Translations under genes and position numbers: made by a program | Assembly (NCBI GenBank): GCA_944380295.1 | Contig: CALWHE010000006.1 | Location: 11,670 to 75,669, forward strand | DNA from: an uncultured Christensenellaceae bacterium | Lineage (GTDB): Bacteria > Bacillota > Clostridia > Christensenellales > UBA3700 | Reading direction: 5' to 3' | DNA length: 64,000 nucleotides | The notes under the pieces: generated by a model | Told to the model about the DNA's origin: nothing | The model's input: the letters and a program-made list of their open reading frames with translations, nothing else | Database searches by the model: none | In this document: one piece after another, positions 1,931 to 55,190 of the stretch | Position numbering within the stretch: position 1 is the stretch's first letter | Layout: every line of letters starts with the position of its first letter

Positions 1931-2039
1931 CTCTGCCCTCCACCTCCGCCTCGCCGCCGCGGCGGACAAGTTATCTCATCAAGCGGCAAAATTTTTCTTT
2001 TTTTGCTTTATTTTCCCCGCACAAGCGTGTATAATTAAA

Positions 2040-2879: not shown

Positions 2880-3478
2880 TGTCCTGCGCGGCACGGGCAG
2901 CGCGGGGCTGCACCCCTTATATACTCCGCAATAACGGGAAATCTTGACGCGGCAAACATCTTCGCAAAAACGCAAATTAGCGCAAGTGTGTTCGACGGCT
3001 CAGGACGCGATATTTTTCTCTGCCGGACAGACGCTATGCGGGCAGCGTGACGCTGCCCGCGCTTTATTGCACTTTGCCGTGTAAGTATTGCGAAAAGATC
3101 AGCCGGAAAGACGAACAAGTTACTTCAAGGCATATAATGGGTGCAGCGGCACGCTGCCCGCCACGCACGACGAGCGCGGAGCTGTATCGTCTTTCTGTCG
3201 CTCTTGCTATGTTTTATAACACTTTATTTAATGTGCCCACAGCACCGCCACGCACGACGAGCGCGGAGCTGTATCGTCGTGCATTTCACGTGCCCTCTCG
3301 TCGCTTGCGGTTTGAGGGCACATTTCACGTTTTTGCCAACTCGTTGGCAAAAACATTTCACTTTTCGGCAGAGGAAACGCGGCGCTTACGCAACCGCTAT
3401 ATCTGCCGAAAAATTTCACGTCCGAAGCGGCACGGCACCCTTTTGCTTATCGTTCATTGCCGTGCCGCGCAGGACATT
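2880..3478 (+). repeat. Mosaic intergenic repeat region: truncated E arm, P2 palindromes, F module, one heptamer-hairpin cassette
   Basis: P2 at about 3045..3062 and 3139..3160. Cassette at about 3246..3475 with ATTTCAC at about 3283, 3320, 3355 and 3412. Shares long blocks with 12460..12800 and 45520..45968. Confidence 0.85.
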
Positions 3479-3981: not shown

Positions 3982-4059
3982 CTCTTCTCCTTTGCCGCAC
4001 GGCGGCTTTATCGGTTTGGTTTTTTTGCTATATGTTCAAAGCGCCTGCCGGCGCATTCC

Positions 4060-4540
4060 CCTTGCGGCTTTTGCCCTGCCGCGACCGGCATGCGGATAAG
4101 CGCTCCCCGGCGCAAGTCTTGTCTTACTTGCGGCAGAACGGTTTGCCACCCACGCGCTCCCCCTGCGGCTTTTGCCCTGCCGCGACCGGCATGCGGATAA
4201 GCGCTCCCCGGTGCAAGTCCGCTTATTTGCGGCAGGACGGCTTGCCACCCGCGCGCGCCCCCTGCGGCTTTTGCCCTGCCGCGACCGGCATGCGGATAAG
4301 CGCTCCCCGGCGCAAGTCTTGTCTTACTTGCGGCAGGACGGCTTGCCACCCGTGCGCCCCCTGCGGCTTTTGCCTGATGTCACCGGCATGCGGATAAGCG
4401 CTCCCCGGCGCAAGTCTTGTCTTACTTGCGGCAGGACGGCTTGCCACCCGTGCGCCCCCTGCGGCTTTTGCCCTGCCGCGACCGGCATGCGGATAAGCGC
4501 TCCCTGGTGCAAGTCTTGTCTTACTTGCAGCGTTCGGGCA
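4060..4540. repeat. Tandem array, about 98 bp x 5
   Basis: Unit ccctgcggcttttgccctgccgcgaccggcatgcggataagcgctccccggcgcaagtcttgtcttacttgcggcaggacggcttgccaccc... starts at about 4060, 4162, 4260, 4358 and 4456. Internal hairpin CGCAAGT n8 ACTTGCG. Confidence 0.9.
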
Positions 4541-4757
4541 TAAAAAGCTCCGCGCCGCCATCTGCCGGCGCCGCGCGCTTGCGTTTTGCATGAAACTCTT
4601 TTGAACTCCGCGGGATCCGCCGCGCAAACAGACCTCTCGGCGGGCTTTAAGTCCCCGCCGCGGCGGCGCTTCAAACCGCCGTTTGCGCCCTTCCTTTTTC
4701 CACACTTCCATTGTATCATACAAAACTCCGGTTTTCAAGATTAGAGTGCAAAAAATT

Positions 4758-6419: not shown

Positions 6420-6555
6420 GAACCGCCGCTGCCGGCACAACTTTCCCCACTCCCCCGCACCGCCGCTGCCGGCACAACTTTTCCCGCTCTTCCGAACGCC
6501 GCTGCCGGCGCAATTTTCCGCTCACCCGAATCGCCGCTGCCGGCACAACGCTTTG
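6420..6555. repeat. Short tandem repeat, about 34-37 bp x 4
   Basis: Core cgccgctgccggcacaactt recurs at about 6424, 6461, 6498 and 6532. Confidence 0.75.
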
Positions 6556-6590
6556 TGCGGCGCGCCCCTTCAAGCTCCGTCCGCCCCGGA

Positions 6591-6710
6591 ATTTTATAAA
6601 GTCCGCTTTATAAAACTTGCGTTTTTGACGATTTTATAAAGTCTGCTTTACAAAACTTGTATTTTTACCGATTTTATAAAGTCTACTTTACAAAATTCTT
6701 GACATCGCCC
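6591..6710 (+). promoter_or_regulatory. Three 40-bp tandem units, each with an AT-rich palindrome (TTTTATAAAG n4 CTTTATAAAA) plus a -35-like hexamer
   Basis: Units at 6591..6630, 6631..6670 and 6671..about 6710. The first palindrome is perfect with 10-bp arms, and the others have 1-2 changes. The last unit ends in the real -35. Confidence 0.7.
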
Positions 6711-6728
6711 CCGCCGCTGTGCTATAAT
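6699..6728 (+). promoter_or_regulatory. Sigma-A-type promoter of the DUF4143 ATPase gene
   Basis: TTGACA (6699..6704), 18-nt spacer, TATAAT (6723..6728), then GGAGG RBS and ATG 6746. Confidence 0.7.
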
Positions 6729-6745: not shown

Positions 6746-7975
6746 ATGATAATACGCAATAAATATCTGCAAAAGATACTTCCTTTTATCGATAAACCGG
6801 TCATCAAGGTCATCGTGGGCATCAGGCGCTGCGGTAAAACGGTTTTACTTTCTCAAATCAAAGAACTGGTGCAAAATTCGGGCGTGGAAGCGGAGCGGAT
6901 CGTGGAGCTGAACTTTGAATCATTTGCCAGCGAACCCTTCAAGACCGCCAAGGCGCTTTACGACCATATCAGGCAAAAAAGCGCAAAGCAAAACGGTAAA
7001 AAGCTATATCTGTTTTTAGACGAGATCCAGGAAGTGCCCCAATGGCAAAAAGCGATCGATTCCCTTTTTGTGGACATAGCTTGCGATATTTATATCACCG
7101 GTTCCAACTCCAACTTGCTCTCCGGCGAGCTTGCCACCTATATTTCCGGCAGATACGTGCACTTTGACGTATACCCTTTTTCTTTTGCCGAGAGCGTGGA
7201 ATATTCCGCACAGCTGGGGCGCGGCAAGAGCACGGAAGAGCTTTTTGACGAATATCTGCAACTGGGCGGACTGCCGCAGCGGTTCTTATTTGAAGACAAA
7301 AGCGCCGTCCGCACTTATTTGTCCGACATCTTCGACACTGTGGTGATAAAGGATATTTTATTGCGCGGCAAGATAGAAAACCCCGACCTCTTGCGCAGGC
7401 TGACGGCGTTTTTACTGGACAACGTGGGCAACACGTTTTCCGCAAGTTCCGTCCGCGGCAAATTGGCAAGCGAGGGCGTAAAAACCAGCGTGCCCACATT
7501 AATGAATTATATCGCCGCCATTAAAAACGCCATGATAATCAACGCCGCTCCGCGCTACGACATAAAGGGGAAAGCGCTGCTTTCCACGGGAGAAAAATAT
7601 TACGCCGCCGATCTGGGACTGCGCAACATCGTAAAAAGCTCCGATATGGTGGATCTGAGCAAACTTTACGAAAATGCGGTGTTCAACGAAATGCTCTCCC
7701 GCGGCTGGGAAGTGTGCGTGGGCAAGGAAGGCGAGCGCGAAGTGGATCTGATCTGCGTGAAAGACGGCAAAAAAGTCTATATCCAGGTGACATATCTGCT
7801 GGCGGATAAAGCCGTTACGGAGCGCGAATTCCGCCCCCTGCGCGAAATAGACGACAACTTCCCCAAATATGTGATAAGCGGCGACAGGCACGACCTTTCC
7901 GCGGGCGGTATCATCCACAAAAACATCATAACTTTCCTCACGGAAGACCGGGCGGACGCCGGCGCGCTGTGGTAA
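6746..7975 (+). CDS. AAA+ ATPase with a DUF4143-type C-terminal nuclease-like domain
   Basis: Walker A GIRRCGKT and Walker B LFLDEIQ. C-terminal E..EVDLICV...YIQVTY is a PD-(D/E)xK-like motif. Family-typical N-terminus (MIIRNKYL..I...KVI.G.RRCGKT). The 5' part is visibly lower in GC than its neighbours. Confidence 0.85.
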   Translation: MIIRNKYLQKILPFIDKPVIKVIVGIRRCGKTVLLSQIKELVQNSGVEAERIVELNFESFASEPFKTAKALYDHIRQKSAKQNGKKLYLFLDEIQEVPQWQKAIDSLFVDIACDIYITGSNSNLLSGELATYISGRYVHFDVYPFSFAESVEYSAQLGRGKSTEELFDEYLQLGGLPQRFLFEDKSAVRTYLSDIFDTVVIKDILLRGKIENPDLLRRLTAFLLDNVGNTFSASSVRGKLASEGVKTSVPTLMNYIAAIKNAMIINAAPRYDIKGKALLSTGEKYYAADLGLRNIVKSSDMVDLSKLYENAVFNEMLSRGWEVCVGKEGEREVDLICVKDGKKVYIQVTYLLADKAVTEREFRPLREIDDNFPKYVISGDRHDLSAGGIIHKNIITFLTEDRADAGALW

Positions 7976-8035: not shown

Positions 8036-8160
8036 ATCAGCGGCTGGGGGTGCCTCCGAGGAGGCTGAGAGAGTCCCTTTGAACTTGGTCAAGGTAATTC
8101 TTGCGAAAGGAAGCAAAATCGGAAATGTTTTCTTAAAGTTCCTTCAGCCGAAGGAGTTTT
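8036..8160 (+). ncRNA. TPP (THI-box) riboswitch with expression platform
   Basis: ctgggggtgcc..ggCTGAGAgagtccctttGAACttGgtCaaggTAATtcttGCGaaAGGAAgc matches the THI-box core. Downstream hairpin TCCTTC agcc GAAGGA plus T7 sequesters the GGAG RBS just before ATG 8164 of a thiamine transporter. Confidence 0.85.
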
Positions 8161-9300: not shown

Positions 9301-9496
9301 GAGCAAACCGCCGGCAAAACGCCCAACGCAGTCTGAGCGCGGCACAAAAAATCGCCAAGGCAAAATGACCGCCGGCAAAACGACCGCCATTGTCAAGGCA
9401 AAACGACCGCCGGCAAATAACCAAACCGCGCCCCGCCAACCTTTCCGGCTTGCGGGGCGCATATCTTTTTTATACCTCTTGACTTAGCCGCCGTTT

Positions 9497-9542
9497 TTCG
9501 GCTGATTTAATATCAGATGTTAAATCAGCCGAAAGTTTTTTT
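9497..9542 (+). terminator. Rho-independent terminator downstream of thiT
   Basis: 14-bp stem TTCGGCTGATTTAA / TTAAATCAGCCGAA, 9-nt loop, then a T-run. Confidence 0.8.
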
Positions 9543-9640
9543 GCAATGTTTTTCCGCAAATTCGCCGCACTTTTTTAGCGATTTTCGGCGATTTTTCTTT
9601 TACGGAAAATGCTTTGTATATGTTTATTATTTTGATTTTT

Positions 9641-9770
9641 CGGCAAGTTGGCGGGATTTTGTTCGGCAAGTTGGCGGGATTTTGTTCGGCAAGTTGGCGG
9701 GATTTCGTTCGGCAAGTTGGCGTGATTTCGTTCGGCAAGTTGGCGGGATTTCGTTCGGCAAGTCGGCAAA
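9641..9770. repeat. 23-bp tandem repeat, five full copies plus a partial sixth
   Basis: CGGCAAGTTGGCGGGATTT(T/C)GTT at 9641, 9664, 9687, 9710 and 9733, with a partial copy at 9756. Confidence 0.9.
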
Positions 9771-9875
9771 GGCGCGCTTTGTTTTGGCGGCGGCGCGCGG
9801 CGGGCGAAAAATTCGCGCGGGCAAAGCGTTGCCGTTTATTTGTGTTTTTTTCTTTTGCGTGTTATAATCGTTAGT

Positions 9876-10679
9876 ATGGAAATAGGCATATCGACGGCTT
9901 CTTATTTTCCGCGCCTGGTGACGGAAGACGCCATGGAGCAAGTGGCTCTTGCGGGCGCCAAGGTGAGCGAGGTGTTTTTTGCCACCCACAGCGAGTATAC
10001 GCGCGAGTTCGCCGCCGAGGTGAAAAAGCGCGCCGACGCGGGCGGAGTGCGCATAAATTCCGTGCATGCGCTGACAAATCAATTCGAGCCGGAGCTGTTC
10101 GGCAAGGGGCTGCGGGCGCATGCGGACGCCCTCACCACTTTTACCCGCGTGTGCGAAGCGGGCAAGGTGCTGGGCGCGAAGTATTACGTGCTGCACGGCG
10201 CCACCCGTCTGAAACCGGCGGTCAAATATGTGTTCGATTACGAATTTCTCGCCTCGCGCGTGAACAAACTGTGCGACATCGCGCAAAGCCACGGTATCAC
10301 GCTCACATACGAAAACGTGCATTGGGCATACTTTTCCGTGCCGGAATACTTTGAAAAGCTCGCGCCGCTCTGTCCCCGTCTGGGCGCCACTCTGGACGTG
10401 AAGCAAGCCATGCAGTCGCGCCTCGATTACGCGGATTTTCTGCGCGTGATGGGCAGCCGGCTGAAAACGGTGCACCTGTGCAACTGGACGGAGAGCGGCA
10501 AACTGGTCATGCCCCACTCAAAAGAAGGCGTGCTCGATTTCAAGCTGCTTTTCAAGCGCCTGCGCGACGCGGGCTTTGACGGCGCGTGCCTGATCGAGGT
10601 CTATTCCTCGTGCTATAACGATTTTGCGGAAATAGCGCGCAGCCTTGATTATTTGAACGACATAAAAACAGACCTGTAA
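9876..10679 (+). CDS. Sugar phosphate isomerase/epimerase (xylose-isomerase-like TIM barrel)
   Basis: AP_endonuc_2-like pattern (SVH, YYVLHG, LTYENVH, acidic metal ligands). ATG 9876 lies 7 nt after TGTTATAAT. Confidence 0.8.
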   Translation: MEIGISTASYFPRLVTEDAMEQVALAGAKVSEVFFATHSEYTREFAAEVKKRADAGGVRINSVHALTNQFEPELFGKGLRAHADALTTFTRVCEAGKVLGAKYYVLHGATRLKPAVKYVFDYEFLASRVNKLCDIAQSHGITLTYENVHWAYFSVPEYFEKLAPLCPRLGATLDVKQAMQSRLDYADFLRVMGSRLKTVHLCNWTESGKLVMPHSKEGVLDFKLLFKRLRDAGFDGACLIEVYSSCYNDFAEIARSLDYLNDIKTDL

Positions 10680-12124: not shown

Positions 12125-13335
12125 AAAGAGAAAAAGGATAAGGCGGGTCCCGTTTTCAACGGGATCTGCCTTTTCCTCTTTCGCTTCCTGAAAGACAACC
12201 CCGGCATTCGCAATCGACATAATCATTCCAATATACTTTTATTCAGGGTGCAGCGTCACGCTGCCTCCGCCCCCTACACCGTGAAATCGATTGCTTGAGC
12301 CGCGGTTTTCTCTCTTTTTGCGGAACACGATATCGCATATCGCGCTTGGTCTTGCCGCAAAAATTCACTCTTTCCGCCCTCATTCGCTCCGCGCGCTCCG
12401 CTCATTCGGAAAATGCGCACGGCGCATTTTAGAGGTAACGCTTGGCAAAAGTGTGATTTTGCCGCGCTTTATTACACTTTGCTACGGAAGCATTACGAAG
12501 AGATTAGCCGGATAAACGAACAAGTGACTTCAAGGCATATAATGGGTGCAGCGGCACGCTGCCCGCCACGTCCGCGATGCGCCGTGCTATGCACGGCAGT
12601 ATGAGCGGACATTTCACGTGCCCTCTCGTCGCTTTGCGGTTTGATGGCACATTTCACGTTTTTGCCAACTCGTTGGCAAAAACATTTCACTTTTCGGCAG
12701 AAAAAACGCGGCGCTTGCGCAACCGCTATATCTGCCGAAAAATTTCACGTCCGTAGCGGCACGGCACACTTTCGTTTATAGATTTTGCCGTGCCGCGCAG
12801 GACATAAAGGGGTGGAGCGCCCCGCGCTCCGGGCGCAGCATTATATTCTAATAACGCCGCAGGCAGCCGCCACGCACGACGAGCGCGGAGCTGTATCGTC
12901 GTGCATTTCACGTGCCCTCTCTGTGAGCGCGCAAGTTCTTCACATTGCGGTCACATATGATCGGGGTGCAGCGTCACGCTGCTTTGAGGGCACATTTCAC
13001 GTTTTTGCCAAGGTGTTGGCAAAAACATTTCACTTTTGCGCGGTTGGCATATCATATATGTTTGTCTATGATGATAATTATGCCGGACAGACGTCTATAA
13101 GGGTGCGCAGGAGAGTGATGGATTTGCGTGCGGATTTGGACAAATGTGCCGCAGGCAATACTTGTTGTATTGTCAAGGCGCATTTGTGCAAAGGCGTGCG
13201 TAAAGACGCGCCCTACTGCGTGCCCGCATAGCGTCTGTCCGGCAGAGAAAAATATCACGTCCGGAGCAAGGGCACATTTCTTCGCTTATCGCTCATTGTG
13301 CCCTTGCGCAGGACATAAAGCGCTCCTGCCCGCTT
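12125..13335 (+). repeat. Mosaic intergenic repeat region: module L, then two heptamer-hairpin cassettes, the second carrying module E
   Basis: L at 12125..12565. Cassettes at 12565..12803 and 12805..13315. ATTTCAC at about 12610, 12650, 12685, 12742, 12903, 12990 and 13030. E at 13083..13242. Confidence 0.9.
12142..12182. terminator. Bidirectional terminator-like hairpin at the start of repeat module L
   Basis: GGCGGGTCCCGTT ttc AACGGGATCTGCC followed by a T-rich run and preceded by an A-rich run. The same hairpin module follows the aminotransferase gene (about 29430..29470) and rnj (about 36960..37010). Confidence 0.7.
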
Positions 13336-16400: not shown

Positions 16401-16560
16401 AAACGACCCGGCAAGCGATACTTTGGGCACGGACGGCGCAAGCGATACTTCGGGCGCGGACGGCGCAAGCGACGCCGCCAATGCTGACAACGCTCCCGAT
16501 ACCCCAAGCGCGGACAACTCCGCCGGCGATAAAGATACTTCCGGCGGCGTGCAAAATTAA
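13420..16560 (+). CDS. MMPL/RND-superfamily membrane transporter with a long disordered C-terminal tail
   Basis: Two six-TM bundles, each preceded by a large extracytoplasmic domain. MMPL-like segments (GISILLNMGSN.., LAMDYAIFL.., AIELGATVDYAILF). About 200-aa Lys/Ala then Asp/Ala/Ser/Thr-rich tail. Promoter TTGACA n17 TATATT at about 13340..13368. Confidence 0.85.
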   Translation: MDEEKHEIAIEECGAEEPLPQPDDGAESAKRKGKFRGKKGKKREKGALTAAFAGKLLDRKWVVVGVITALLVLSFIGLLFVKKNGDVTSYLKDDTNTMIGKSVLEDAYSIQGDLNIAISYLSKDQVQTIYDSIVSDPELTHMYVTENKDGKEVRSTIISKDVWIGTFDMVLELGEGGLDFGFVHVDGIDPVVAQQIYDSAAKNYVKQTQLGNGTVVTTYILSFYLKSAASDNATIDALDRIEEIINDNINQQKSAGLISETISAESCYYFGGTAENARILVASSVGDMPIFVAIAVVAVFFILLLTSHSYFEPLIFLATLGISILLNMGSNIIAGNPVGTISTITSSCSTILQLALAMDYAIFLMHTYYEELRIKLNPRDAIISALPKTLASISASALTTIGGFVALFFMQFGMGYDLGFVLAKGVLLSLLTVIILQPVMILLFSKPIMKSQHSWIVEPRLGFVSKNITKKGVAVAVIAICAVICLPCAYFQSLTPLTYISTTEATPTDQMTNPQYVLQDYSNQVIVLVPFSPKEGDEADKTDYVAKQYEFLAWLKTGLGTEEGTHKAEDILSLCTIIPQERYQEIAEHENGLVMSFIQGNFVNSYTSADGSTREYMLYTVNLQGHPEDEESYASIAAIRAYAAQLFGVEETQVYMTGLAQGASDLASVTPDDFMLVNILSAAIIFIILLFTFRSFITSLILLAVIEAGIFFNLAIVYFVSLLAPYAPGLLSVFSGEINFMAYLIVSAIELGATVDYAILFTSKLNEEKAKGCRPERAIRNAVFRSAPSVTTSAAILIAVCLAVNAISSNIIVRQITELIARGTFFSYILVFTLLPSILLFKEKAHAALLKRKGTEVVYDDNAEDLNNAKREAKRARHIEMMQAKAAEFGFDYDPNAPFIDFKQIKADLAAKKQEREQTRLREKALKQAKAQAKKEGVTFEEYLAAHPLPAGDTPAAADDLISSDTNSAANDTADPANASDTAPADGANAAPNTNDPASDTLGTDGASDTSGADGASDAANADNAPDTPSADNSAGDKDTSGGVQN

Positions 16561-16571
16561 CGCTTTGACAT

Positions 16572-16601
16572 AAACGGGCGCAGCGCTGCGCCCGTTTTTT
16601 T
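16572..16601 (+). terminator. Rho-independent terminator after the MMPL gene
   Basis: AAACGGGCGCAGC/GCTGCGCCCGTTT palindrome followed by T7. Confidence 0.85.
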
Positions 16602-16628
16602 AATACGCCGCTCACGGAGATAACGGAA

Positions 16629-17078
16629 ATGGAAATATCGGCATATAAAAAGCACTTTGCACCGGCTTTTGCGCAATTTAACTTTGCTTGGCTGAACAAA
16701 TATTTCACTCCCGAACCCGCAGACTTTGCCGTTTTGAACGATCTGCAAGCGCAAATAGATGCGGGCGGTATGGCTTTTTTTGCCCTTGAAGAGGGCAAGG
16801 TCATCTCTGCTTGCCTGGTAGTGCCGCTTGAAAACGATGTGTGGGAAATATGCAAATTCGCCACCGACGAACATTATCGCCGCAGGGGCGCAGGCAGCGC
16901 GGTCCTTGCCGCCTGTATGCAATACGCCGCCGCGCACGGCGCCAAAAAACTTATGATAGTTTCCCACACCGTTTTGCAAGACGCCGTCCGGCTTTACCGT
17001 AAAATGGGTTTTGAAGAAGTCCCCGTCACCGACAGACAATTCGAGCGCGTCAGTATCCAATTCGAGCGCCGCCTTTGA
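16629..17078 (+). CDS. GNAT family N-acetyltransferase
   Basis: Acetyl-CoA binding motif RRRGAGSAVL, with typical GNAT length and C-terminal Y.K.GF. Confidence 0.85.
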   Translation: MEISAYKKHFAPAFAQFNFAWLNKYFTPEPADFAVLNDLQAQIDAGGMAFFALEEGKVISACLVVPLENDVWEICKFATDEHYRRRGAGSAVLAACMQYAAAHGAKKLMIVSHTVLQDAVRLYRKMGFEEVPVTDRQFERVSIQFERRL

Positions 17079-17082
17079 CCCG

Positions 17083-17424
17083 TCAGATGTCATCGAAGTT
17101 GGTGGTATCGCCCAACATTTTGTTCAATTGCTCTGCGGTGTAAATTCTTTCGTTGGCAAAATGCTTTTTACCCGCCCTTTTGCCCTCTCGTTTGCCCCGC
17201 TTAGACTGCTGTTCCGCCCGCTCCTGCTGGCGCTTGATCGCCGCGTCTATGTTGGGAATAGCCATGGTCAGCAACACTTTGGCAGGGGCGCTTATATCGC
17301 GGCGCACCTCTTTGAAGCCTCCGTATCGCAGCACCGCCCACGCCGCTTCTTTTTGCGCTTCCACATCCAGCAGATCGAGCGCCTCGATGATGGAAGGCAA
17401 ACAATAAAATCCGTTTGTCATCAT
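17083..17424 (-). CDS. Hypothetical protein, possibly related to mobile elements or phage
   Basis: ORF 17083..17493. I prefer the ATG at 17424 (MMTNGFY...), preceded by AGGGGGG. Basic KR-rich centre. No family confidently recognised. Confidence 0.45.
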   Translation of the reverse strand: MMTNGFYCLPSIIEALDLLDVEAQKEAAWAVLRYGGFKEVRRDISAPAKVLLTMAIPNIDAAIKRQQERAEQQSKRGKREGKRAGKKHFANERIYTAEQLNKMLGDTTNFDDI

Positions 17425-17549
17425 GATCCCCCTGTAAAGCTCCGCGCTTTCGCGCTCAAAAAATTTTGCGACTTTAATATAACGCCGTGCCACTTGTCCG
17501 CACCAGCCTCGCCTGCCGCTTTACTAAAAATATCGACCGTCTTGTAATA

Positions 17550-18645
17550 AACAGGGTGCAGCGTCACGCTGCCCGCCGCGCTTTTATAGTGCTTTATTAA
17601 GTATTGCGAAGAGATACGCTTACTACCACTTCCCGCCTCTGCGAAGCATATCAGAGTGCAGCGTCACGCTGCCCGCGCTTTTATTGCACTTTATCAAGTA
17701 TTGCAGGGAATAACGCTTACTACCACTTCCCGCCTCTGCGAAGCATATCAGGGTGCAGCGGCACGCTGCCCGCACCTTCCCGGCACGGCGATAAGCGCCG
17801 TTTCTATCTGTATATTATCGGACAAGCGGCTTTGACAATGTCCGGGAACAGGGCGAAAAAACGCCGTGCTGCGAAAGTGCAAAGAGTGGCACCTCGGAGT
17901 AAAGCATAGTTTTTGCGCAGCATAACAAGGGGTGGAGCGCCCCGCGCTCCGGGTGCAGCGTTATACTCGAATAGCGCCGCAGGTAGCCATCACGCACGAC
18001 GAGCGCGGAGCTGTATCGTCGTGCATTTCACGTGCCCTCTCGTCGCTTGCGGTTTGAGGGCACATTTCACGTTTTTGCCAACTCGTTGGCAAAAACATTT
18101 CACTTTTGCGCAGCAGTATATGTTCGCTTATCGCTCACTTATATCTGCGCAAAAATTTCACGTCCGCAGCCGCCGAACATAGCTTTCGCTTATTGATTTT
18201 GTTCGGCGGCGCAGGACATAAAGGGGTGGAGCGCCCAGCGCTCCTCTACTTATATTATAACACGGAAAACCGCGGTTTTTGAGATGAGAGTGCAAAATTT
18301 TTTTTGCAAAACCACAAAAAACCTTCCCCATAGGCGGCAATTTTGCCTCGCGCGACGCGCGTTATATCTTTTTTCTTTTTCTTGTTTTTTCTCTTTTTCT
18401 TCGACTTTTGCTTTATCTTTCTCTTCTTTGAAGAAAAAGAAAAGGGGGGTTTGGGGGGAAAGGAAAAGGAGCGTGACGGGAGCGCGGGGCGGCAGCGTGA
18501 CGGGAGCGCGGGGCGCTCCACCCCCTGTTATGCTTCGCAGAGATAAACCATGATCGCGGAGCGTTTCTCTTCACAAAACCAATATTTGTTTGCGGCAGAA
18601 TGCCGATAAGCGCGGCTCTTCCCACAAGCGGCATATGCGGTTCGG
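17550..18645 (+). repeat. Mosaic intergenic repeat region
   Basis: P2 palindrome plus about 75 nt repeated with a 97-100 nt period at 17552, 17652 and 17749. Cassette at 17929..18217 with four ATTTCAC. P1 boxes at about 17929, 18222 and 18500. Pyrimidine/purine tract at 18365..18475. Confidence 0.9.
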
Positions 18646-22701: not shown

Positions 22702-22721
22702 CGGTATCCTCCATTATGTCC

Positions 22722-23590
22722 TGCGCAAGGGCACAATGAGCGATAAGCGAACTTGTGCGCCCTTGCTTCGGACGTGAAATTTTTGCGCGGATATATGCGA
22801 GCGGCAAGCGAGCATAACTGCCGCGCAAAAGTGAAATGTTTTTGCTTTATAAAGCAAAAACGTGAAATGTGCTCTTAAACCGCTCCGCGACGAAAGAGCA
22901 CGTGAAATGTCCGCTCATACTGCCTCGCAAGGCGAGCCGCATCGCGGACGTGGCGGCTGCCTGCGGCGCTATTAGAATATAATGCTGCACCCGGAGCGCG
23001 GGGCGCTCCACCCCTGATCGTGCCTTGAAGTAACTTTCCCGTCTGTCCGGCTGACCTCTTCGCAACTCTTACACAATATAGTGTAATAAAGCGCGGCAAA
23101 ATCGCACTTTTGCCAAGCGTCACCTCTAAAATGCGCCGTGCGCATTTTCCGAGTGAGCGGAGCGCGCGGAGCGGCAGCGTGCCGGGAGCGGCAGCGTGCC
23201 GGGAGCGCGGGGCGCTCCACCCCTGATCGTGCCTTGAAGTCACTTTCCCGTCTGTCCGGCTGACCTCTTCGCAACTCTTACACAGTAAAGTGTAATAAAG
23301 CGCGGGCAGCGTGCCGGGAGCGCGGGGCGCTCCACCCCTGATCGTGCCTTGAAGTCACTTTTCCGTCTGTCCGGCTGACCTCTTCGCAATGCTTACACAA
23401 TAAAGTGTAATAAAGCGCGGGCAGCGTGACGCTGCACCCTGGTAAGTGTAATATCCCGCCGTCCAAAACCGCGCTTTTGGACGAGCGCACCTTGGGCAAG
23501 GCGACTGCCTTGCGCGCCGCTCCCGCGGCGGCGGAAAGGGGTGAAGTTTTGCGGCTAACGCTTGCGCGCTTTCTTATATCTTGCCGCAAA
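22722..23590 (-). repeat. Mosaic repeat region between ilvC and ilvD
   Basis: Cassette at 22726..23014, with GTGAAAT on the plus strand at about 22770, 22830, 22862 and 22902. Three tandem F modules, each ending in a P1 or P2 box, at 23015..23445. Module G at 23450..23530. Confidence 0.9.
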
Positions 23591-23593
23591 ACG

Positions 23594-28392: not shown

Positions 28393-28439
28393 AAATTCCC
28401 TGCGCCGCCCTGCGCGGCAAAAAACACTTAATATGGTTA

Positions 28440-29482
28440 TGATAACATAAGCGCGCGTGTATGTCAAGAAAGCAGAATTATGTCCTGCACAAGGGCGCAA
28501 TGAGCGATAAGCGAAGAAATGCGCCCTTGCTCCGGACGTGAAATTTTTGCGCAGATATAAGTGAGCGGTAAGCGAACATAACTTCCGCGCAAAAGTGAAA
28601 TGTTTTTGCCAACTCGTTGTCAAAAACGTGAAATGTGCCCTCAAACCGCAGAGCGACGAGAGAGCACGTGAAATGTTTGCTCATACTGCCGCAAAGCGGC
28701 GCATCGCAAACGTGGCGGCTGCCTGCGGCGCTATTAGAGTATAATGCTGCACCCGGAGCGCGGGGCGGTCCACCCCTTTATGTCCTGCGCCGCCAAACAA
28801 GAGTGAAAAGCGACAAAAATGTTTGGCGGCTCCGGACGTGAAATTTTTGCGCAGATATAAATAAGCGGTAAGCGAACGTATAATGCTGCGCAAAAGTGAA
28901 ATGTTTTTGCCTCGCAAGGCAAAAACGTGAAATGTGCCCTCAAACCGCAAGCGACGAGAGGGCACGTGAAATGTTTGCTCATACTGCCGCAAAGCGGCGC
29001 ATCGCAAACGTGGCGGCTGCCTGCGGCACTATTAGAATATAATGCTGCACCGGAGCGCGGGGCGCTCCACCCCTTACACGCCTTGACGTCACTTTTCTGT
29101 ATTTTCAGCCAATCGCTTTGCAATACCTACCCAATTAAGTGTAATAAAGCGCGGCAAAATCACATTTTTGCCAAGCGTCACCTCAAAAATGCGCCGTGCG
29201 CATTTTCCGAATGAGCGGAGCACGCGAAGCGAATGAGGGCGGAAAGAGTGAATTTTTGCGGCACGACCAAGCGCGCCACGAGATTACGCCGCCCGCAAAA
29301 AGAGAGAAAACCGCGGCTCAAGCAATCGAATCCGCGGCAAAGTGGCGGAGGCAGCGCGGTGCTGAACTCTAAATAAAATTATATTGGAATGATAATGTCG
29401 ATTGCGAATGCCGGGGTTGTCTTTCGGGAAGCGAAAAATGAAAGGGCAGTTTCCGTTGTAAACGAAAACCGCCCTATCCCTT
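28440..29482 (-). repeat. Mosaic repeat region: two head-to-tail heptamer-hairpin cassettes plus module L
   Basis: Cassettes at 28478..28776 and 28778..29073. L at about 29075..29482, ending in the terminator hairpin next to the aminotransferase stop. Confidence 0.92.
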
Positions 29483-36069: not shown

Positions 36070-37030
36070 CGCTCTTATTATAGCAATTCTCCGCGAACAA
36101 GTAAAGGGAGTGCGGGGCGGGCAGCGTGACGCTGCACGCTTTATGTCCTGCGCAAGGGCGCAATGAGCGATAAGCGAAGAAATGCGCCCTTGCTCCGGAC
36201 GTGATATATTTTGCCGTGACAGACATATGAAATAAGCGTAAAAACACCAAACGGCAAAATGCGATATGTCGGCTACGCCGACGCGATATGTCCTGCGCGG
36301 CACGGCAAAGTCAATAAGCAAAAGTGTGCCGTGCCGCTCCGGACGCGATATTTTTGCGCGGATATATGTGAGCGGCAAGCGAACATAACTTCCGCGCAAA
36401 AGCGAAATGTTTTTGCCTTGCAAGGCAAAAACGTGAAATGTGCTCTTAAACCGCTCCGCGACGAAAGAGCACGTGAAATGTTTGCTCATACTGCCACAAA
36501 GCGGCGCATCGCAAACGTGGCGGCTGCCTGCGGCGCTATTAGAGTATAATACTGCACCCCTAATAAAGTGTAATAAAGCGCAGCAAAATCGCACTTTTGC
36601 CAAGCGTCACCTCTAAAATGCGCCGTGCGCATTTTCCGAATGAGCGGAGCGCGCGGAGCGGCAGCGTGACGCTGCACCCTGATAAATATAATATACCGCC
36701 GTCCAAAACCGCGCTTTTGGACGAGCGCACCTTGGGCAAGGCGACTGCCTTGCGCGCCGCTTCGCGGCGGCGGAAAGAGTGAATTTTTGCGGTAAGACCA
36801 AGCGCGATACGAGATTACGCCGCCCGCAAAAAGAGAGAAAACCGCGGCTCAAGCAACCGATTTCACGGCAAAGTGGCGGAGGCAGCGTGATGCTGCACCA
36901 CAATTAAAAGTATATTGGGAATGATAATATCGATTGCGAATGCCGGGGTTGTCTTTCGAGAAGCGAAAGAGGAAAAGGCAGTTCCCGTTTGTAACGGGAA
37001 AAGCCTTATCCTTTTTCTCTTTCGCTTATT
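36070..37030 (-). repeat. Mosaic repeat region between rnj and the methyltransferase gene
   Basis: Degenerate cassette at 36141..36560, with heptamer variants GTGATAT, GCGATAT and GCGAAAT as well as GTGAAAT at 36433 and 36473. Module G at about 36690..36765. Module L at about 36560..37030 with its terminator hairpin next to the rnj stop. Confidence 0.9.
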
Positions 37031-45109: not shown

Positions 45110-45968
45110 TTAAATATTATTTACGAATTTTGCGGATACTCCGCCGCGAATATTATATCATCAACCGGGCAAAAAAGTAAACAAAATAAACGTGGTTTCT
45201 GCCCCTGCCGCAAAGCGGCGTATCGCAAACGTGACGGGCAGCGTGCCGCTGCACCCGGAGCGCGGGGCGCTCCGCCCCTTACACGCCTTGACGTTGCTTT
45301 TCCGTTTGTTCTGCTAATCTCTTCGCAATACTTCCATATCAAAGTGTAATAAAGCGCGGCAAAATCGGCAATGTTACGCTGTCTTGCGCGCCGGCTGTTT
45401 TGGACGGCGGGAAGTCACACTTTTAAGACTATGCGATGCAAAGAGATGAAGTAAGTAATGTAAATGAAGTTACTTCAAGGCGTATAAGAGTGCAGCATGT
45501 TTCTGTCGCTCTTGCCACGCTCTATTACACTTTATTAAGAGCGAGTATTGCAAAAAGATCAGACGGAAAGACGAACAAGTTACTTCAAGGCTTGATCAGG
45601 GGTGGAGCGCCCCGCGCTCCGGGTGCAGCGTCACGCTGCCGCCCCGCGCTCCCCGCCACGCACGACGAGCGCGGAGCTGTATCGTTTTTCTGTCGCTCTT
45701 GCTATGTTTTATCGCATTTTATTTAATGTGCCCACAGCACCGCCACGCACGACGAGCGCGGAGCTGTATCGTCGTGCATTTCACGTGCCCTCTCGTCGCT
45801 TTGCGGTTTGAGGGCACATTTCACGTTTTTGCCTTGCAAGGCAAAAACATTTCACTTTTGCGCGGAAGTTATGCTCGCTTTCCGCTCACATATATCCGCG
45901 CAAAAATTTCACGTCCGGAGCCGCCAAACATTTTTGTCGCTTTTCACTCTTCTTTGGCGGCGCAGGAC
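45110..45968 (+). repeat. Mosaic repeat region between pckG and clpC; its last hairpin overlaps the clpC 3' end
   Basis: P1/P2 boxes at about 45228..45275 and 45599..45660. F module at about 45500..45600. Cassette at about 45640..45968 with four ATTTCAC. Confidence 0.9.
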
Positions 45969-48487
45969 ACCTTAAATCCCCCGTCTTTGACGGTGAGTTC
46001 GACGCTGTCGCCCTCTTTGATCTCGCCGGCGAGCAGCTTTTCCGAGAGCATGTCTTCCACATTGCGCTGGACGGCGCGGCGCAGAGGTCTGGCGCCGTAT
46101 TCCTTGTTATAGCCCTTTTCTATCAGCAGATCGCACGCCGCCTCGTCAAAGGTGAAGGTGATGTTGCGCTCTTTGAGGCGCTTTGCAACATCGTTCAGCA
46201 TCTTGGTGCAGATGGTGCGCATATCCGCCTTTTCCAGGCTGCGGAAGATGATGATATCGTCTATGCGGTTGATGAATTCGGGCTTGAAAGCGTCTTTGAG
46301 CGCCTGCATCTGCCTGTCTCTCACGTTTTCGTAATCCTGCTCTGCGGAGCCGAAGCCCAGGCGGGAATTTTTTATCTCCCCCGCGCCAATGTTGGAGGTC
46401 ATGATGATGATGGTGTTTTTGAAGTTGACCTCCCTGCCGTGCGAGTCTTTGAGGTGACCGTCGTCCAGCACCTGCAAAAGCACGTTGAACACGTCCGGGT
46501 GCGCCTTTTCTATCTCGTCGAACAAGATGACGGAATAAGGATGGCGGCGCACTTTTTCCGTGAGCTGACCGCCCTCGTCGTAACCCACGTAGCCGGGCGC
46601 GGAACCGATGAGTTTGGACACGTTGAACTTTTCCATATATTCGGACATATCCACGCGTATCATCAGGTTTTCGTCGCCGAACATTGCCTCCGCCAGGGCT
46701 TTGGAAAGCTCCGTCTTGCCCACGCCGGTGGGACCCAGGAAGATGAACGAACCTATCGGGCGGCGGCGGTCCTGCACGCCGGCGCGGGCGCGGCGCACCG
46801 CTCTTGCCACGGCGGACACCGCCTCGTCCTGTCCGATCACGCGCTTGCGCAGCTCCTCTTCCAGGTGCAGAAGTTTGGACGATTCGCTCTCCGTCAGCTT
46901 GGCGACGGGAATGGACGTGGTGAGCGACACCACTTCCGCAATGTCCTTATCGTCGATGGCAAGCTCCGTCTGCGCCTTGTCGCTGCCCCACTTTTTCTTG
47001 CCTTCCGCAATTTGGGCGTTCAGCTTCTTGATCTTGTCGTCTATCTCCGCGCACTTGGCGTATTCGCGCCTGTCCACGTGGTTTTTCAGCTCTATGTTCA
47101 GCTTGTTCACCTCTTCTTCCATGTCCTTGATGGGCTGAGGCAGCACAAAGTTGGACACCTTCTTTTTCGCCATCGCCTCGTCTATGAGGTCGATCGCCTT
47201 ATCGGGCAAAAATCTGTCCGATATATACCTGTCTGAGAGCACGGCGGCGGCTTCTATGGCGGAGTCGGATATCTTCACGTTGTGGAACTTTTCGTATTTG
47301 GAGCGCAAACCTTTGAGAATGGTCTGCGTTTCCTCCACCGTGGGCGGCTCCACCATGATGGGCTGCAACCTGCGCTCCAAAGCGGCGTCTTTTTCTATAT
47401 ATTTGGTATACTCGGCGATGGTGGTGGCGCCTATTGTCTGCAACTCTCCGCGCGCCAAAAGCGGCTTTAAGATGTTTGCCATATCCAAAGAACTGTCACC
47501 GGAAGCGCCCGCACCCACGATGAGGTGAATTTCGTCGATGAAGAGAATGATGTTGGAGTCCGATTTGATGAAATCGAGCAGTTTTTTCATCCTCTCTTCA
47601 AACTCGCCGCGGTATTTGGTGCCCGCCATCAGCCCCGCCACGTCCAGGGAAAAGATGGTCTTGCCACGCAGTGTTTCCGGCACTTCGCCCGCCACGATGG
47701 CTTGCGCCAATCCTTCCACAATGGCGCTCTTGCCCACGCCCGGCTCGCCGATGAGCACGGGATTGTTTTTGGTGCGGCGGGAGAGCACTTCTATTATCCT
47801 GTCTATCTCCTTGCTCCTGCCGATGACGGGGTCCAGCTTGCCCTCGCGCGCCTTTTGCGTGATGTCCGTGCCCAGCTTTTCCATCTCCTTGGAGATGCCG
47901 CCCTTGCGCGGCTTTTCCGCCTCGCGTTCGCCGCCGCGCGCTCTCGGACGGGGATCATCGCCCACCAAGCGCCGCTCGAACATGCGGCGCATCTCATCGA
48001 ACGGATCGAGCTCCTCTTCGTCGTCTTCGTCTTCGTCCTCGCCAAAGTTCATATTGCCGGGCGAATCGATGTTGAGCACGAGCCGCCTTGCCTTGTCGCG
48101 CAGCTCGTTCACGTCCACGCCCAAAGCCATCAGCTTTTGCACGGCGTAAGAATCGCGCATGTTAAGCACGCCGAACAGCAAAAGCGCGGAATTTATCTCG
48201 CCGCCCTCCGTGTTGTTTGCCGCCGCGGCGCACCAGTCCAGCACCTTGCGCGTGCGGTCGGACAGCCGCACTTTGTCGAGCGGCGTTTCTCTGTCTGCAT
48301 TGACAAAATCGGGCACGTTGCCCTGCGAGAGCGAATATTCCTGCAAAAGCGGACGCGCAAAACAGTCCACGCCCAGCATGGCGGCAAGGAAAAACTCCGT
48401 GCCCAGCAGACCCGCGCTCGTGTGTGCGGCAAGTTTACCTGCCGCCGTTACCACTCTGTTACACTCTTCCGTAAAATTATAATCCAT
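45944..48487 (-). CDS. clpC: ATP-dependent Clp protease ATP-binding subunit ClpC
   Basis: Clp N-domain repeats, two AAA modules ([16 protein letters not shown]), a UVR-like middle domain. Start trimmed to ATG 48487 (MDYNFTEE) after GGAGGAAG. Downstream of mcsB. Confidence 0.95.
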
Positions 48488-48504
48488 CTTTTCTTCCTCC
48501 TTCC

Positions 48505-49500
48505 TCAGCGGGCGAGCGCTTTTTGCACTATCCTCGCCCTGGTGATATCCCTTTCTTCCGCGTTCAGTTTTTTGCCCGCCGCCTTGCACAGCATTGCAGG
48601 TTGAGTGAGCGTTATCAGCTCGTCCGCCTTATCCGCGTCCGCCGCGATATACTCCAAACAGATGCCCAGCTTTACATAAGCGATCAGCTCCATGAACTCT
48701 TCCGAAGAGATCTTGCATGCGTTGGTAAGCACGCCGTAAGCGCGCATTATCTTGTCTTTCAGGTCAACGCCTCCCCGTCTGGCAAGCTCTTCTCTGGCGG
48801 CGCGTTCGGCGCGGATAAAGCTCTCCGCCACCTTGGTCACGCGCCCCAGTATCTCCTCCTCGCCGGCGCCTATCATCGCCTGGTTGGATATCTGATACAT
48901 AAATCCCTGCGCGCCGCTGCCCTCGCCGTAAACGCCCCTGGCGGTCACGCCGAACTTGGGCAGGGTGTTGAGCACGCTGCCCAGCGACCCGGACAGCGCC
49001 AAGCCGGGCAAAAACACCATAAAAGACGCCCTCATGCCCGCGCCCATGTTGGTGGGGCAGGCGGTGAGATAGCCGTATTTTTCGTCAAAGGCAAAGTCCA
49101 GCTGCGCCGCCATCGCCTTGTCCGCCTCCACCAGCCGCTTGAACGCGCCGGCAAGATCGAAGCCGGACACTATGCACTGCGCGCGGATATGGTCTTCTTC
49201 GTTTATCATCACGGAGAGATCCTGCAAGGCGCTTATCATCACCGCGCCGTAACGCGATCCCACCAGCGCCGGAGAGATGAGGTGCCGCTCCACCAAAGAC
49301 TGCGCCTCTGTGTGATCCAACCCGTTCATGCGATACATGCGGAACTCGCCCAGCGGCGCCAGCGCCTTTTCCACCCCGCGCATGAGCACGGAATATATGC
49401 CCTCTTCACCCGTCAGCTTGTCGGGAAAAGGCAGCGATGTGATGTTGCGGGCAAATCTCACCCGGCTGGAAAAAACCACGTCTTTACTTCTGTCCGTCAT
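48505..49500 (-). CDS. mcsB: Protein arginine kinase McsB
   Basis: ATP:guanido phosphotransferase domain (INEEDHIRAQ, CPTN.G.GMRAS). Operon position between mcsA and clpC. Confidence 0.93.
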   Translation of the reverse strand: MTDRSKDVVFSSRVRFARNITSLPFPDKLTGEEGIYSVLMRGVEKALAPLGEFRMYRMNGLDHTEAQSLVERHLISPALVGSRYGAVMISALQDLSVMINEEDHIRAQCIVSGFDLAGAFKRLVEADKAMAAQLDFAFDEKYGYLTACPTNMGAGMRASFMVFLPGLALSGSLGSVLNTLPKFGVTARGVYGEGSGAQGFMYQISNQAMIGAGEEEILGRVTKVAESFIRAERAAREELARRGGVDLKDKIMRAYGVLTNACKISSEEFMELIAYVKLGICLEYIAADADKADELITLTQPAMLCKAAGKKLNAEERDITRARIVQKALAR

Positions 49501-50514: not shown

Positions 50515-51000
50515 CCGCCCTTGCGCCGCCTTTTTGTCCGCCTTGCGCTTTGCCCCGCCTGGCTTTTGCCCTAGCTTTGCTTTCCGTTCCGCTTGGCTCT
50601 TGCTCTGCGCTCCGGCTTGGCTTTCGCTCTTGCGTTACGCTCATGCTTGGCTTTTGCCCTGCGTTGCGTTCTGCCCGGCTCTTGCCCTGCGTTGTATTCC
50701 GCTCCGCTTTGGCTTTTGCTCTTGCGTTCCGTTCGGCTCTTGCTTTGCTTTGCGTTCCGCTTGGTCTTTGCCTCGCGTTGCGTTCCGCCCGGCTCTTGCC
50801 CTGCGTTGTATTCCGCTCCGCTTTGGCTTTTGCTCTTGCGTTCCGTTCGGCTCTTGCTTTGCGTTCCGCTTGGTCTTTGCCTCGCGTTGCGCTCCGCCCG
50901 GCTCTTGCTCTGCGTTTCCGCCCCGCTCTTACCTTACATTGCGTTCCGCTTGGTCTTTTCGGTCGTCCGACAGCTCCCTTTGCCTTGTCGCGTTTTTTCG
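50515..51000. repeat. About 490 nt of degenerate tandem repeats between the CtsR-box promoter and ctsR
   Basis: About 110-nt unit seen twice nearly intact at about 50660..50770 and 50771..50880. Shorter gcgttccgcttgg(c/t)ctt.gc-type subrepeats occur throughout. T/C-rich on plus, purine-rich on the transcribed strand. Confidence 0.85.
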
Positions 51001-54419: not shown

Positions 54420-55190
54420 AAATGTAAAATACGAATTATGTCCTGCGCGTCGGCTGTTTCGGACGGTGGCAGCGTGACGCTGCACCCTTGATATGCTTCG
54501 CAGCAGCGTGACGCTGCACCCTTTATATGCTTCTCAGCAGCGTGACGCTGCACCCTTTATATGCTTCTCAGTGCCGGAACCGTCGGTTATCGAGGCTCTT
54601 CGCACTGGTATTTGTCGGGTATATGATGATACTAATGGCGGGCAGGCGCTGTTAAGGGCGCGCGGCTGTATCGACTTTCTGTCGCTCTTACTATGTTTAT
54701 AACATTTAATTTGATGTGCCCACAGCACCGCAACGTCCGCGATGCGCCGTGCTATGCACGGCAGTATGAGCGGGCATTTCACGTGCCCTCTCGTCGCTTG
54801 CGGTTTGAGGGCACATTTCACGTTTTTGCCAACTCGTTGGCAAAAACATTTCACTTTTGCGCGGTTGTCATATTTCATGTGTTTGTTTATGATGACAATT
54901 ATGCCGGACAGACGTCTATAAGGGTGCGCAGAAGGGCGATGGATTTGCGTGCAGGTTTGGACGGCGGGGACGCGGCAATACTTGCCCGGTTTATAACGAT
55001 ACGCTGTTTCCAATAACTATTAATGCCGGGCAGGCGCTGTTAAGGACATGCGGGAGGGCGATGGATTTGCGTGCAGGTTTGGACGGCGGGGACGCAGGTA
55101 ATACTCTTGCGGTATTATCAAGTCCCCGCCGTTCAAAGATGTGCGTAAAGCCGCGCCCTACCGCGTGCCCTTAACAGCGCCTGTCCGGCA
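54420..55190 (+). repeat. Mosaic repeat region between ppdK and recO; overlaps the recO 3' end
   Basis: Three tandem P2 units at 54469..54571. Truncated cassette with ATTTCAC at about 54775, 54815 and 54850. Half E copy from 54904. Variant E copy at 55026..55189. Confidence 0.9.

Follow-up and report, generated by a model that had tools for sequence, protein, structure and literature searches.

What are the structured repeats that fill the long intergenic gaps of this DNA, and do they act as RNA or as DNA? The stretch that we analysed (hereafter the window) is 64 kb long, has a base composition of 56.5% G+C and comes from an uncultured Christensenellaceae bacterium. Its gaps carry cassettes of about 300 nt in which a series of hairpins is joined end to end by the heptamer ATTTCAC. 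Two cassettes lie head to tail at 28478–28776 and 28778–29073 (hereafter the focal units). An earlier reading of the window, made from its letters alone (the sequence-only reading), had described this pair and offered three explanations: a non-autonomous mosaic mobile element, a multi-hairpin RNA processed at the heptamers, or an array of sites for a heptamer-binding protein. The pair is real, and the first explanation is the best fit of the three, given the variation in cassettes between strains. On balance, we think it somewhat more likely than not that the cassettes are mosaic DNA repeats, a family that reaches high copy number between genes and is restricted to one species. They resemble the repetitive extragenic palindromic sequences and bacterial interspersed mosaic elements (REP/BIME) or the Neisseria intergenic mosaic elements (NIMEs), and their design is common to Gut-1, a motif from gut metagenomes.

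The heptamer is much more frequent than chance allows. Exact ATTTCAC occurs 43 times on the two strands of the window, against 7.9 ± 3.0 in dinucleotide-preserving shuffles (maximum 16; none of 100 shuffles reached 43). Arrays account for 37 of the 43: there are 11 arrays, each with one to four copies on one strand, which agrees with the earlier count of about 37 exact heptamers in element context. The other six (12281, 16702, 19483, 21368, 32988 and 36860) are dispersed as by chance. A second heptamer class, ATATCGC/ATATCAC, is found 32 times where 10 are expected, and the composite pattern of heptamer, hairpin H2 (see below) and heptamer nine times where none is expected. All array junctions, in the window and in the contig L147 from another strain, read AT(A/T)TC(A/G)C whatever the order of the modules that they join.

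The hairpins between the heptamers form an ordered set. Read in the ATTTCAC direction, a unit runs from a GC box through a linker to hairpin H0, and then through H1, H2, H3 and H4, with a heptamer between each hairpin and the next and ATAA at the end. H1 is GTGCCCTC..GAGGGCAC, H2 is GTTTTTGCC..GGCAAAAAC, H3 is TTTTGCGC..GCGCAAAA and H4 is GTCC..GGAC. The string from H0 to H4 is about 230 nt long, and the GC-rich palindromic box brings the cassette to about 300 nt. The stems have at least 8–11 bp and enclose interiors that reach about 40 nt. Every array stem abuts its heptamers, the first base coming right after one and the last base right before the next; this anatomy of ordered hairpins flush with heptamers, as first proposed, is confirmed by sequence and alignment. 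At the ends of an array, ..CAC precedes the first hairpin and AT(A/T)A.. follows the last. Because a heptamer stands at every junction and the array ends read in this way, the simplest building block is a hairpin whose ends are conserved (5'-CAC, palindrome, AT(A/T)-3'), with neighbouring units sharing one joining T.

Both focal units are on the minus strand and follow this plan. Focal unit 1 (28482–28776) begins with box A (28755–28771) and continues through the linker to H0 (28675–28711), H1 (28635–28667), H2 (28602–28627), H3 (28545–28594) and H4 (28482–28537). Its heptamers, visible as GTGAAAT, start at 28538, 28595, 28628 and 28668 and are spaced 57, 33 and 40 nt apart, reproducing the positions and spacing first reported. 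Focal unit 2 (28782–29073) comprises box A (29052–29068), H0 (28973–29009), H1 (28934–28965), H2 (28903–28926), H3 (28845–28895) and H4 (28782–28837), with GTGAAAT at 28838, 28896, 28927 and 28966.

Pairing is kept where the sequence of the hairpins changes. We aligned H1–H4 from 15 distinct copies, taken from the window and from other strains, and found standard pairs in 99.5% of 646 cells; when the partners are slid by one to three columns the figure is 38–54%. Thirteen pairs, in 67 cells, are changed on both sides. Four unrelated sequences (AAGGGCGCA, CGCCAAACA, GGCACGGCA and CGCCGAACA) are found for the inner nine pairs of H4, each with its exact complement, and the base of H4 retains two conserved mismatches, G.A and A.G. 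A unit folds more strongly than its shuffles on either strand (−112.6 and −114.5 kcal/mol, with z about −3.65 in both cases). Wobble pairs stood at 6 to 0 in the first 15 copies (four independent events); over 66 modules they are 4 G.T against 2 A.C, and no strand is favoured.

The order of modules is not fixed. An extended eight-hairpin array on the minus strand (36145–36558) reads H0-H1-H2-H3-H4c-s-X-H4a, where s is a small hairpin (36268–36282), X a further hairpin (36208–36260) and H4a occupies 36145–36200. Its heptamers are ATTTCAC (twice), ATTTCGC, ATATCGC (three times) and ATATCAC. A second minus-strand array, of the ATATCGC class (60237–60514), reads X-H4b-s-H3-H4a, with H4b at 60452–60507, s at 60430–60444, H4a at 60237–60292 and ATTTCAC at 60293; a box B module splits its H3. 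In L147 the order is H4d-s-H3. Arrays of the ATATCGC class contain the further hairpins GTCGGCGYAGCCGAC and ATTTTGCCG..CGGCAAAAT. The units at 36141–36560 and 60215–60530 had been called degenerate, which we correct: they are undecayed arrays that use the second heptamer class.

Ten cassettes in the window have an H1–H2 core, their first heptamers lying at 3283, 12611, 12905, 18025, 45778 and 54776 on the plus strand and at 36473, 28966, 28668 and 22902 on the minus strand. The partial arrays are 60237–60514 (minus) and 194–256 (plus); the latter, at the edge of the window, consists of ATATCAC and H4 and represents the final part of a unit resembling 13059–13314. A cassette is present in 9 of the 11 intergenic gaps of at least 600 nt. 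Within-window repeats make up 60% of the long intergenic gaps, and those gaps hold 96% of all repeated DNA. Relative to the flanking genes, six cassettes are in sense orientation, three are antisense and one lies in a divergent gap. The complete cassette at 3252–3475 (plus strand, H0–H4, with H4 at 3420–3475) matches Gut-1 at 25.9 bits and has a duplicated H0 as its leader in place of box A. A truncated one at 54735–54854 (plus) retains H0, H1 and H2, its H3 being split by a nested element.

The GC palindrome box reported by the sequence-only reading is present, as two families rather than one. Box A, GGAGCGC-nnn-GCGCTCC, has 11 copies in the window, and box B, GCAGCG-nnn-CGCTGC, about 21 sites, among them 12250–12264, 17558–17769 and 54469–54551. 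The boxes are found alone, nested in one another, in tandem (three copies at intervals of 34 nt in 54469–54551) or bracketing cassettes.

Do the cassettes move? We recovered contigs from many ENA and Logan assemblies by their identical IlvC, PGI, McsB or O-methyltransferase. Contig L005 is 100% identical to the window across 14.7 kb; the genes of the other recovered contigs, which represent the strains compared below, are about 98% identical to those of the window. The same cassettes recur on contigs from many independent metagenome assemblies of the host species, so the suspicion of an assembly artefact, for which they should have been absent elsewhere, is not borne out. Comparison of orthologous gaps, which the sequence-only reading had proposed, revealed presence and absence, one or two copies, exchanged interiors, nested insertions and deletions.

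Three loci differ in copy number. The complete cassette at 17934–18217 (plus strand; top Gut-1 score, 33.5 bits), which has box A copies on both sides, is present in L002 and absent from L004 and L003. L002 has only one unit at the focal locus, where the window has two. In the PGI–MMPL gap the window has two cassettes, L143 and L144 have one, and L151 and L145 have none. The first of the tandem units in this gap of the window (12545–12803, plus) is complete, with a box B-type leader and an H0 of GTCCGC type (12570–12610). The second (12814–13314, plus; H1 at 12912–12993, H4 at 13259–13314) carries nested insertions: its H1 loop has been swapped for a box B-bearing module, and an element of about 210–270 nt with inverted ends splits H3. 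At the empty PGI–MMPL site box A directly adjoins CCGCTTTTCCTTGACA, in the MMPL promoter region; the filled site reads box, cassette, box.

Other loci differ in content. The complete cassette in the ilvC–ilvD gap (22718–23009, minus strand) ends with H4 5 nt from the ilvD ribosome-binding site; among strains its H4 interior is AAGGGCGCA or GGCACGGCA, H0 also varies and the H2 tip has three forms, all between constant flanks. The clpC–PEPCK gap, in which the window has a complete cassette (45747–45968, plus), occurs in a one-unit form, a two-unit form, a fused form and a form with a deletion from mid-H4 to box B. In every form an H4 arm encodes the last 6–8 residues of ClpC and the stop codon. 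The window clpC gene (45944–48589, minus) has its stop at 45944–45946, in the far arm of H4 (45913–45968), and the corresponding region of contigs L153–L160 lies near 9495–9560. Consequently, the ClpC C terminus differs among strains according to the H4 version, one version being VSCAAAE. The earlier statement that all copies are intergenic therefore holds except for this H4. Across the loci, the H1 loop and H3 harbour nested copies of other repeats, and hairpin interiors have been exchanged between strains with stem bases and heptamers unchanged.

Where do the cassettes stand relative to transcription? In the gap from the aspartate aminotransferase (AspAT) gene to the AMP-binding enzyme gene, and in the PGI–MMPL gap, the order is stop codon, 15-bp terminator-like hairpin, repeats, cassette, −35/−10 and gene. 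In the former the terminator-like hairpin of the AspAT gene (29443–29475, minus strand; 15-bp stem and T run) has the focal cassettes downstream of it, and the promoter-like site of the AMP-binding enzyme gene (28439–28467, minus; TTGACA, 17 nt, TATCAT, with TG) lies 13 nt past the end of focal unit 1. The order terminator, cassette, promoter is likewise seen by eye in the gap between the RNase J and O-methyltransferase genes. In the clpC–PEPCK gap a PEPCK promoter-like site lies past the cassette and, since the clpC stop falls within H4, no terminator precedes the cassette. A scan of the ilvC–ilvD gap found neither a promoter-like site nor a strong terminator. In these four scanned gaps (AspAT, PGI–MMPL, ilvC–ilvD and clpC–PEPCK) a sigma-70 scan found no promoter belonging to the cassettes themselves; a weak TTGCTA-17-TTTAAT can be seen by eye in the duplicated-H0 leader of three copies. 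We rejected a reading of the hairpins as intrinsic terminators: the H2 and H3 stems have their T run on the 5' side and their A run on the 3' side, H2 scores weakly, and better terminator-like sites of the upstream genes are located elsewhere in two of the scanned gaps.

The genes around the cassettes are ordinary chromosomal ones: ilvA, ilvD, ilvC, ilvB, aspartate aminotransferase, der, RNase J, clpC, PPDK, recO, era and dnaB. The nearest GTDB representatives are uncultured Christensenellaceae metagenome-assembled genomes (MAGs) with 87% IlvC identity. Arrays and GC boxes were not found in the nearest GTDB relatives by IlvC (80 loci), except for one array in contig L014, described below. The exact heptamer-H2-heptamer pattern, which recovers the window copies, has no match in the GTDB representative genomes. 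A generic pattern (three ATTTCAC, with GT..AC hairpin ends) returned no cassette from JGI metagenome contigs or IMG/VR, its 54 JGI loci and two IMG/VR loci all being unrelated simple tandem repeats or minisatellites, and blastn of one unit against plasmids and phages matched nothing.

The sequence-only reading recognized no Rfam family. At Rfam gathering thresholds the window indeed contains only a thiamine pyrophosphate (TPP) riboswitch, and no cassette reaches the cut-off of any family; but a related family does exist. With E-value reporting, seven cassettes match RF01706 (Gut-1) at 25.9–33.5 bits, below its gathering cut-off of 50 bits; focal unit 1 does so at 28536–28679 with 30.3 bits. 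All seven matches are in the GTGAAAT direction and extend over the full model; alignment to the consensus, over model positions 1–77, places all four heptamers on their counterparts. The Gut-1 consensus is CAaUGAAAU-hairpin-GUGAAAU-hairpin-GUGAAAU-hairpin-gUGAAAU, and GUGAAAU is the reverse complement of ATTTCAC, as GUGAUAU is of ATATCAC. Gut-1 was catalogued in 2010, with no host or function assigned, from 43 examples found in human gut metagenomes only (Weinberg et al. 2010, PMC2864571), and we found no later work on it in the literature searched. A match to a known family had been named as a result that would count against novelty. This one weakens the novelty of the cassettes and does not abolish it, because Gut-1 itself is without known function or host.

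Gut-1 also tells us which part of the design is conserved. In its seed alignment the arrays are placed after the terminator of the upstream gene, they use GUGAAAU and GUGAUAU, and an inverse array (AUUUCAC or AUAUCAC) often follows. One seed module, AUUUCAC-GUUUGCCGCAAGGCAAAC-AUUUCAC, resembles H2. The L014 array (9824–9903) belongs to an Eubacteriales MAG of another species, with 78% IlvC identity; four short GTGATAT-bounded hairpins stand there just upstream of ilvC and score 45.2 bits for Gut-1, slightly below the 50-bit cut-off. From the seeds and the L014 array it follows that the heptamer is conserved across species and the hairpins are not.

Taken together, the gain, loss, duplication, nesting and reshuffling of cassettes at strain level, their occurrence in both orientations, their placement outside the obvious transcription units and the fact that both strands fold equally well all favour a repeat that acts at the level of DNA. 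The heptamer, conserved across species beside arbitrary hairpins, suggests a protein that reads hairpin ends. We can outline how such a repeat might work. The fold of a single strand would be what matters, possibly in DNA exposed during replication or repair, and a trans-acting protein would read the conserved ends of the hairpins. A candidate is a single-strand DNA nuclease or transposase of HUH/Y1 type, as in the systems of REP and the REP-associated tyrosine transposase (RAYT) or in IS200/IS605, whose activity may have spread the cassette. Alternatively, spread may have come about by recombination between flanking boxes together with copy-choice among copies. Effects on neighbouring genes, such as the hairpin at the ilvD ribosome-binding site and the new ClpC tail, would be by-products.

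Several observations weigh against this conclusion. Comparison of filled with empty sites reveals neither a duplicated target nor clean ends beyond the repeated box, and therefore recombination between boxes could explain gain and loss without a dedicated enzyme. The breakpoints of exchange could fall anywhere in the conserved stem bases and cannot be placed on the heptamer. A lagging-strand mechanism might predict a replication-strand bias, and the orientations of the cassettes in the 64 kb show none. A Pfam scan of the 40 open reading frames (ORFs) of the window found no transposase, RAYT or recombinase. Compensatory pair changes are expected for RNA too, and on the strength of covariation Weinberg et al. 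rated Gut-1 a likely non-coding RNA (PMC2864571). Finally, since the ilvC–ilvD gap lacks a promoter-like site and a strong terminator, its cassette is probably co-transcribed.

Could the cassettes then be an enlarged form of a structured non-coding RNA, the one that Gut-1 represents, with the heptamer left unpaired for an RNA-binding protein or for an endonuclease that cuts the array into single hairpins? We consider this unlikely. In its favour, the seven Gut-1 matches, sub-threshold as they are, are consistent and span the full model, and the rating by the discoverers of Gut-1, the pairing kept through compensatory change, the folding beyond shuffles, the cross-species heptamer and the probable co-transcription at ilvC–ilvD all suit an RNA. 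So does a detail of the GUGAAAU reading, which lets each stem extend by a U.G and an A-U pair. What speaks against an RNA is that both strands fold equally well and that wobbles favour neither. Copies lie antisense to the flanking genes as well as sense (three and six), and in three scanned gaps the copies stand ahead of the next promoter, two of these gaps having a terminator-like hairpin upstream of the copies; no sigma-70-like promoter of their own was found. Moreover, copy number, module content and order vary among strains whose genes are 98% identical, other repeats are nested inside the loops, and at single loci the Gut-1 seeds themselves often contain arrays of both orientations.

A bolder version of the DNA-repeat reading deserves mention. 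The gut Clostridia may possess a hitherto undescribed repeat system in which an enzyme, perhaps a single-strand DNA nuclease of HUH/Y1 type, acts on single-stranded nucleic acid, reads the CAC...ATW ends (junction AT(A/T)TCAC) of hairpins whose sequence is otherwise arbitrary, and cuts and joins there, Gut-1 being its small form and the cassettes its large form. We regard this as speculative and unlikely; if it holds, hairpin modules would be added, removed and reordered as cassettes.

That the heptamers are sites in double-stranded DNA for a nucleoid-associated or insulator-like protein, with the hairpins as mere spacers, seems to us improbable. It would suit a heptamer that is the sole invariant sequence, common to the arrays of other species, and the placement of arrays between transcription units. 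It leaves unexplained why palindromic spacers should be kept by compensatory change and why stems abut the heptamers exactly, and the spacings of 33, 40 and 57–58 nt are out of helical phase. We find it scarcely credible that the cassettes are merely what old duplications left behind, or an artefact of assembly, given their recurrence in many independent metagenome assemblies of the species, pairing maintained at 99.5% and active rearrangement of arrays among close strains.

The findings bear on Gut-1 and on the host. A close architectural relative of Gut-1 is now placed in an identifiable lineage, near Christensenellaceae MAGs, where this type of motif behaves as a multi-copy, strain-variable mosaic repeat and not as a single-copy gene. 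Across species the heptamer alone is conserved, and the question of whether such arrays are RNA genes or DNA repeats with a dedicated enzyme becomes testable. For the host, the cassettes raise the non-coding DNA of the window to about 23%, are likely to complicate short-read assembly, alter the last 6–8 codons of ClpC and put stable hairpins beside the ilvD ribosome-binding site.

The window also contains other repeats. The element found inside the H3 of cassettes belongs to a separate repeat of about 210–270 nt with inverted ends GCCGGACAGACGTCTAT / ATAGCGTCTGTCCGGC, present at 1–209, 13059–13267 and 60743–60951 and also at 54896–55105; it looks like a small transposon derivative. A recurring hairpin, TTTTGCGG..CCGCAAAA (12316–12362, 23547–23591, 29254–29300 and 36785–36831), is part of a repeat of about 150–190 nt; in several gaps this repeat separates the cassettes from the upstream terminator. 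Tandem repeats comprise about seven copies of the 23-nt TTCGGCAAGTTGGCGGGATTTTG upstream of a xylose isomerase-like TIM-barrel gene (9616–9790), with related copies in other strains; five copies, 70–91% identical, of a unit of about 99 nt (4048–4558), of which a single unit lies near 17600–17900; and a repeat rich in C and T, periodic at 28 and about 81–86 nt (50565–50996), in the gap adjoining ctsR-mcsA-mcsB-clpC. Two more occupy 6420–6720, upstream of an ATPase gene: units of about 41–43 nt with CCGCCGCTGCCGGCACAACTTT, whose copy number varies among strains, and three copies of ATTTTATAAAGTCTGCTTTACAAAACTTG.

Gene content varies among strains as well. Genes for AAA_14/DUF4143 ATPases (6746–7975 in the window; contigs L143–L152) occur in one to three copies at varying positions around the thiamine transporter gene, itself preceded by the TPP riboswitch (8036–8128, 62.9 bits), which is ordinary. 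We rejected these ATPases as a partner of the cassettes, as their gain and loss run through a repeated promoter-like segment, TTGACAT..GCTGTG.TA.AA, which bounds the window copy, and not through cassettes. Downstream of the MMPL gene is a strain-variable island with a DNA methylase, Vsr, MZB and a helicase in L143 and L144 (15545–21422) and an acetyltransferase and DUF6291 in the window (16557–17493). A gene for a large terminase subunit (512–1969, minus strand) indicates a prophage or its remnant at the left window edge.

How do the cassettes compare with known systems? Several can be set aside. Miniature inverted-repeat transposable elements do not fit: there are no terminal inverted repeats and no target-site duplication, and a cassette starts with the GC box and ends GGAC-ATAA, filled and empty sites differing by a repeated box and no short duplication. 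A CRISPR array is rejected as well. The constant part is 7 nt long, where CRISPR repeats have 25–40 nt, and the variable palindromes recur in other copies; this recurrence, and the lack of any cas domain among the 40 window ORFs (Pfam), also undoes the earlier analogy with an inverse of CRISPR. Integron attC sites, which have inverted core sites (RYYYAAC ... GTTRRRY), are rejected, as the heptamers are direct repeats and not inverted ones around each hairpin, and no integrase was found in the window. A DnaA box or a Rex/CRP half-site, considered for GTGAAAT, was dropped because neither agrees with the constraint on the hairpins or with the spacing.

The closest parallels are other mosaic repeats. 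REP/BIME sequences, of enterobacteria and pseudomonads, are GC-rich palindromes with a short word at the hairpin foot; they form mosaics with other motifs, vary among strains and lie between transcription units. Like those with RAYT, the window cassettes are high-copy, imperfect, intergenic palindromes. Unlike them, they have no GTAG foot (the feet are CAC and AT(A/T), the junction ATTTCAC), their hairpins have many sequences and stand head to tail rather than in inverted pairs, and no RAYT (Y1) gene is found among the 40 window ORFs; we know of no RAYT/REP system described in Clostridia. In NIMEs, whose RS units are flanked by dRS3, a constant short element punctuates variable intergenic units that differ among strains. 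The cassettes likewise have variable units with constant short punctuation, fill gaps and differ in content among strains. The punctuation here is 7 nt as against a 20-bp element with inverted ends, the units are palindromes, and sequences and host are unrelated. The BOX repeats of Streptococcus pneumoniae are built of modules that vary in number, lie in intergenic DNA and fold strongly, features that the cassettes share. Compared by description only, the cassettes differ from BOX, which has three fixed module types and no junction heptamer.

The IS200/IS605 family offers a resemblance only, and we take it as a lead only. In one IS200/IS605 element, from a Firmicute, TCAC is a documented target word that TnpA and TnpB have in common (PMC10278001). 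Both window heptamer classes end in TC(A/G)C and, as in that family, where hairpins are recognized on single-stranded DNA, a hairpin stands directly 3' of the short word. In contrast to the family, the window yielded neither tnpA nor tnpB, its hairpins are not distinguished into left-end and right-end forms, and they are too diverse for the recognition known for a single TnpA.

The nearest relative is Gut-1. Both are strings of hairpins bounded by GUGAAAU or GUGAUAU, with stems flush with the heptamers and three consecutive hairpins so bounded. Gut-1 has stems of 4–6 bp and loops of 3–5 nt, whereas the window hairpins are far longer, and aligning them to the model takes insertions of 38, 16 and 25 nt at loops to which the model gives 4, 3 and 5 nt. 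The window units have at least five hairpins and a GC box and reach at least ten copies per 64 kb, and each array is unidirectional, in contrast to the Gut-1 seeds with their paired inverse arrays. What was already known, then, is the Gut-1 design, of which the cassettes are an enlarged, multi-copy variant; what is new is the host lineage, the behaviour as a repeat family and the module rule by which hairpins with conserved ends are joined at heptamers.

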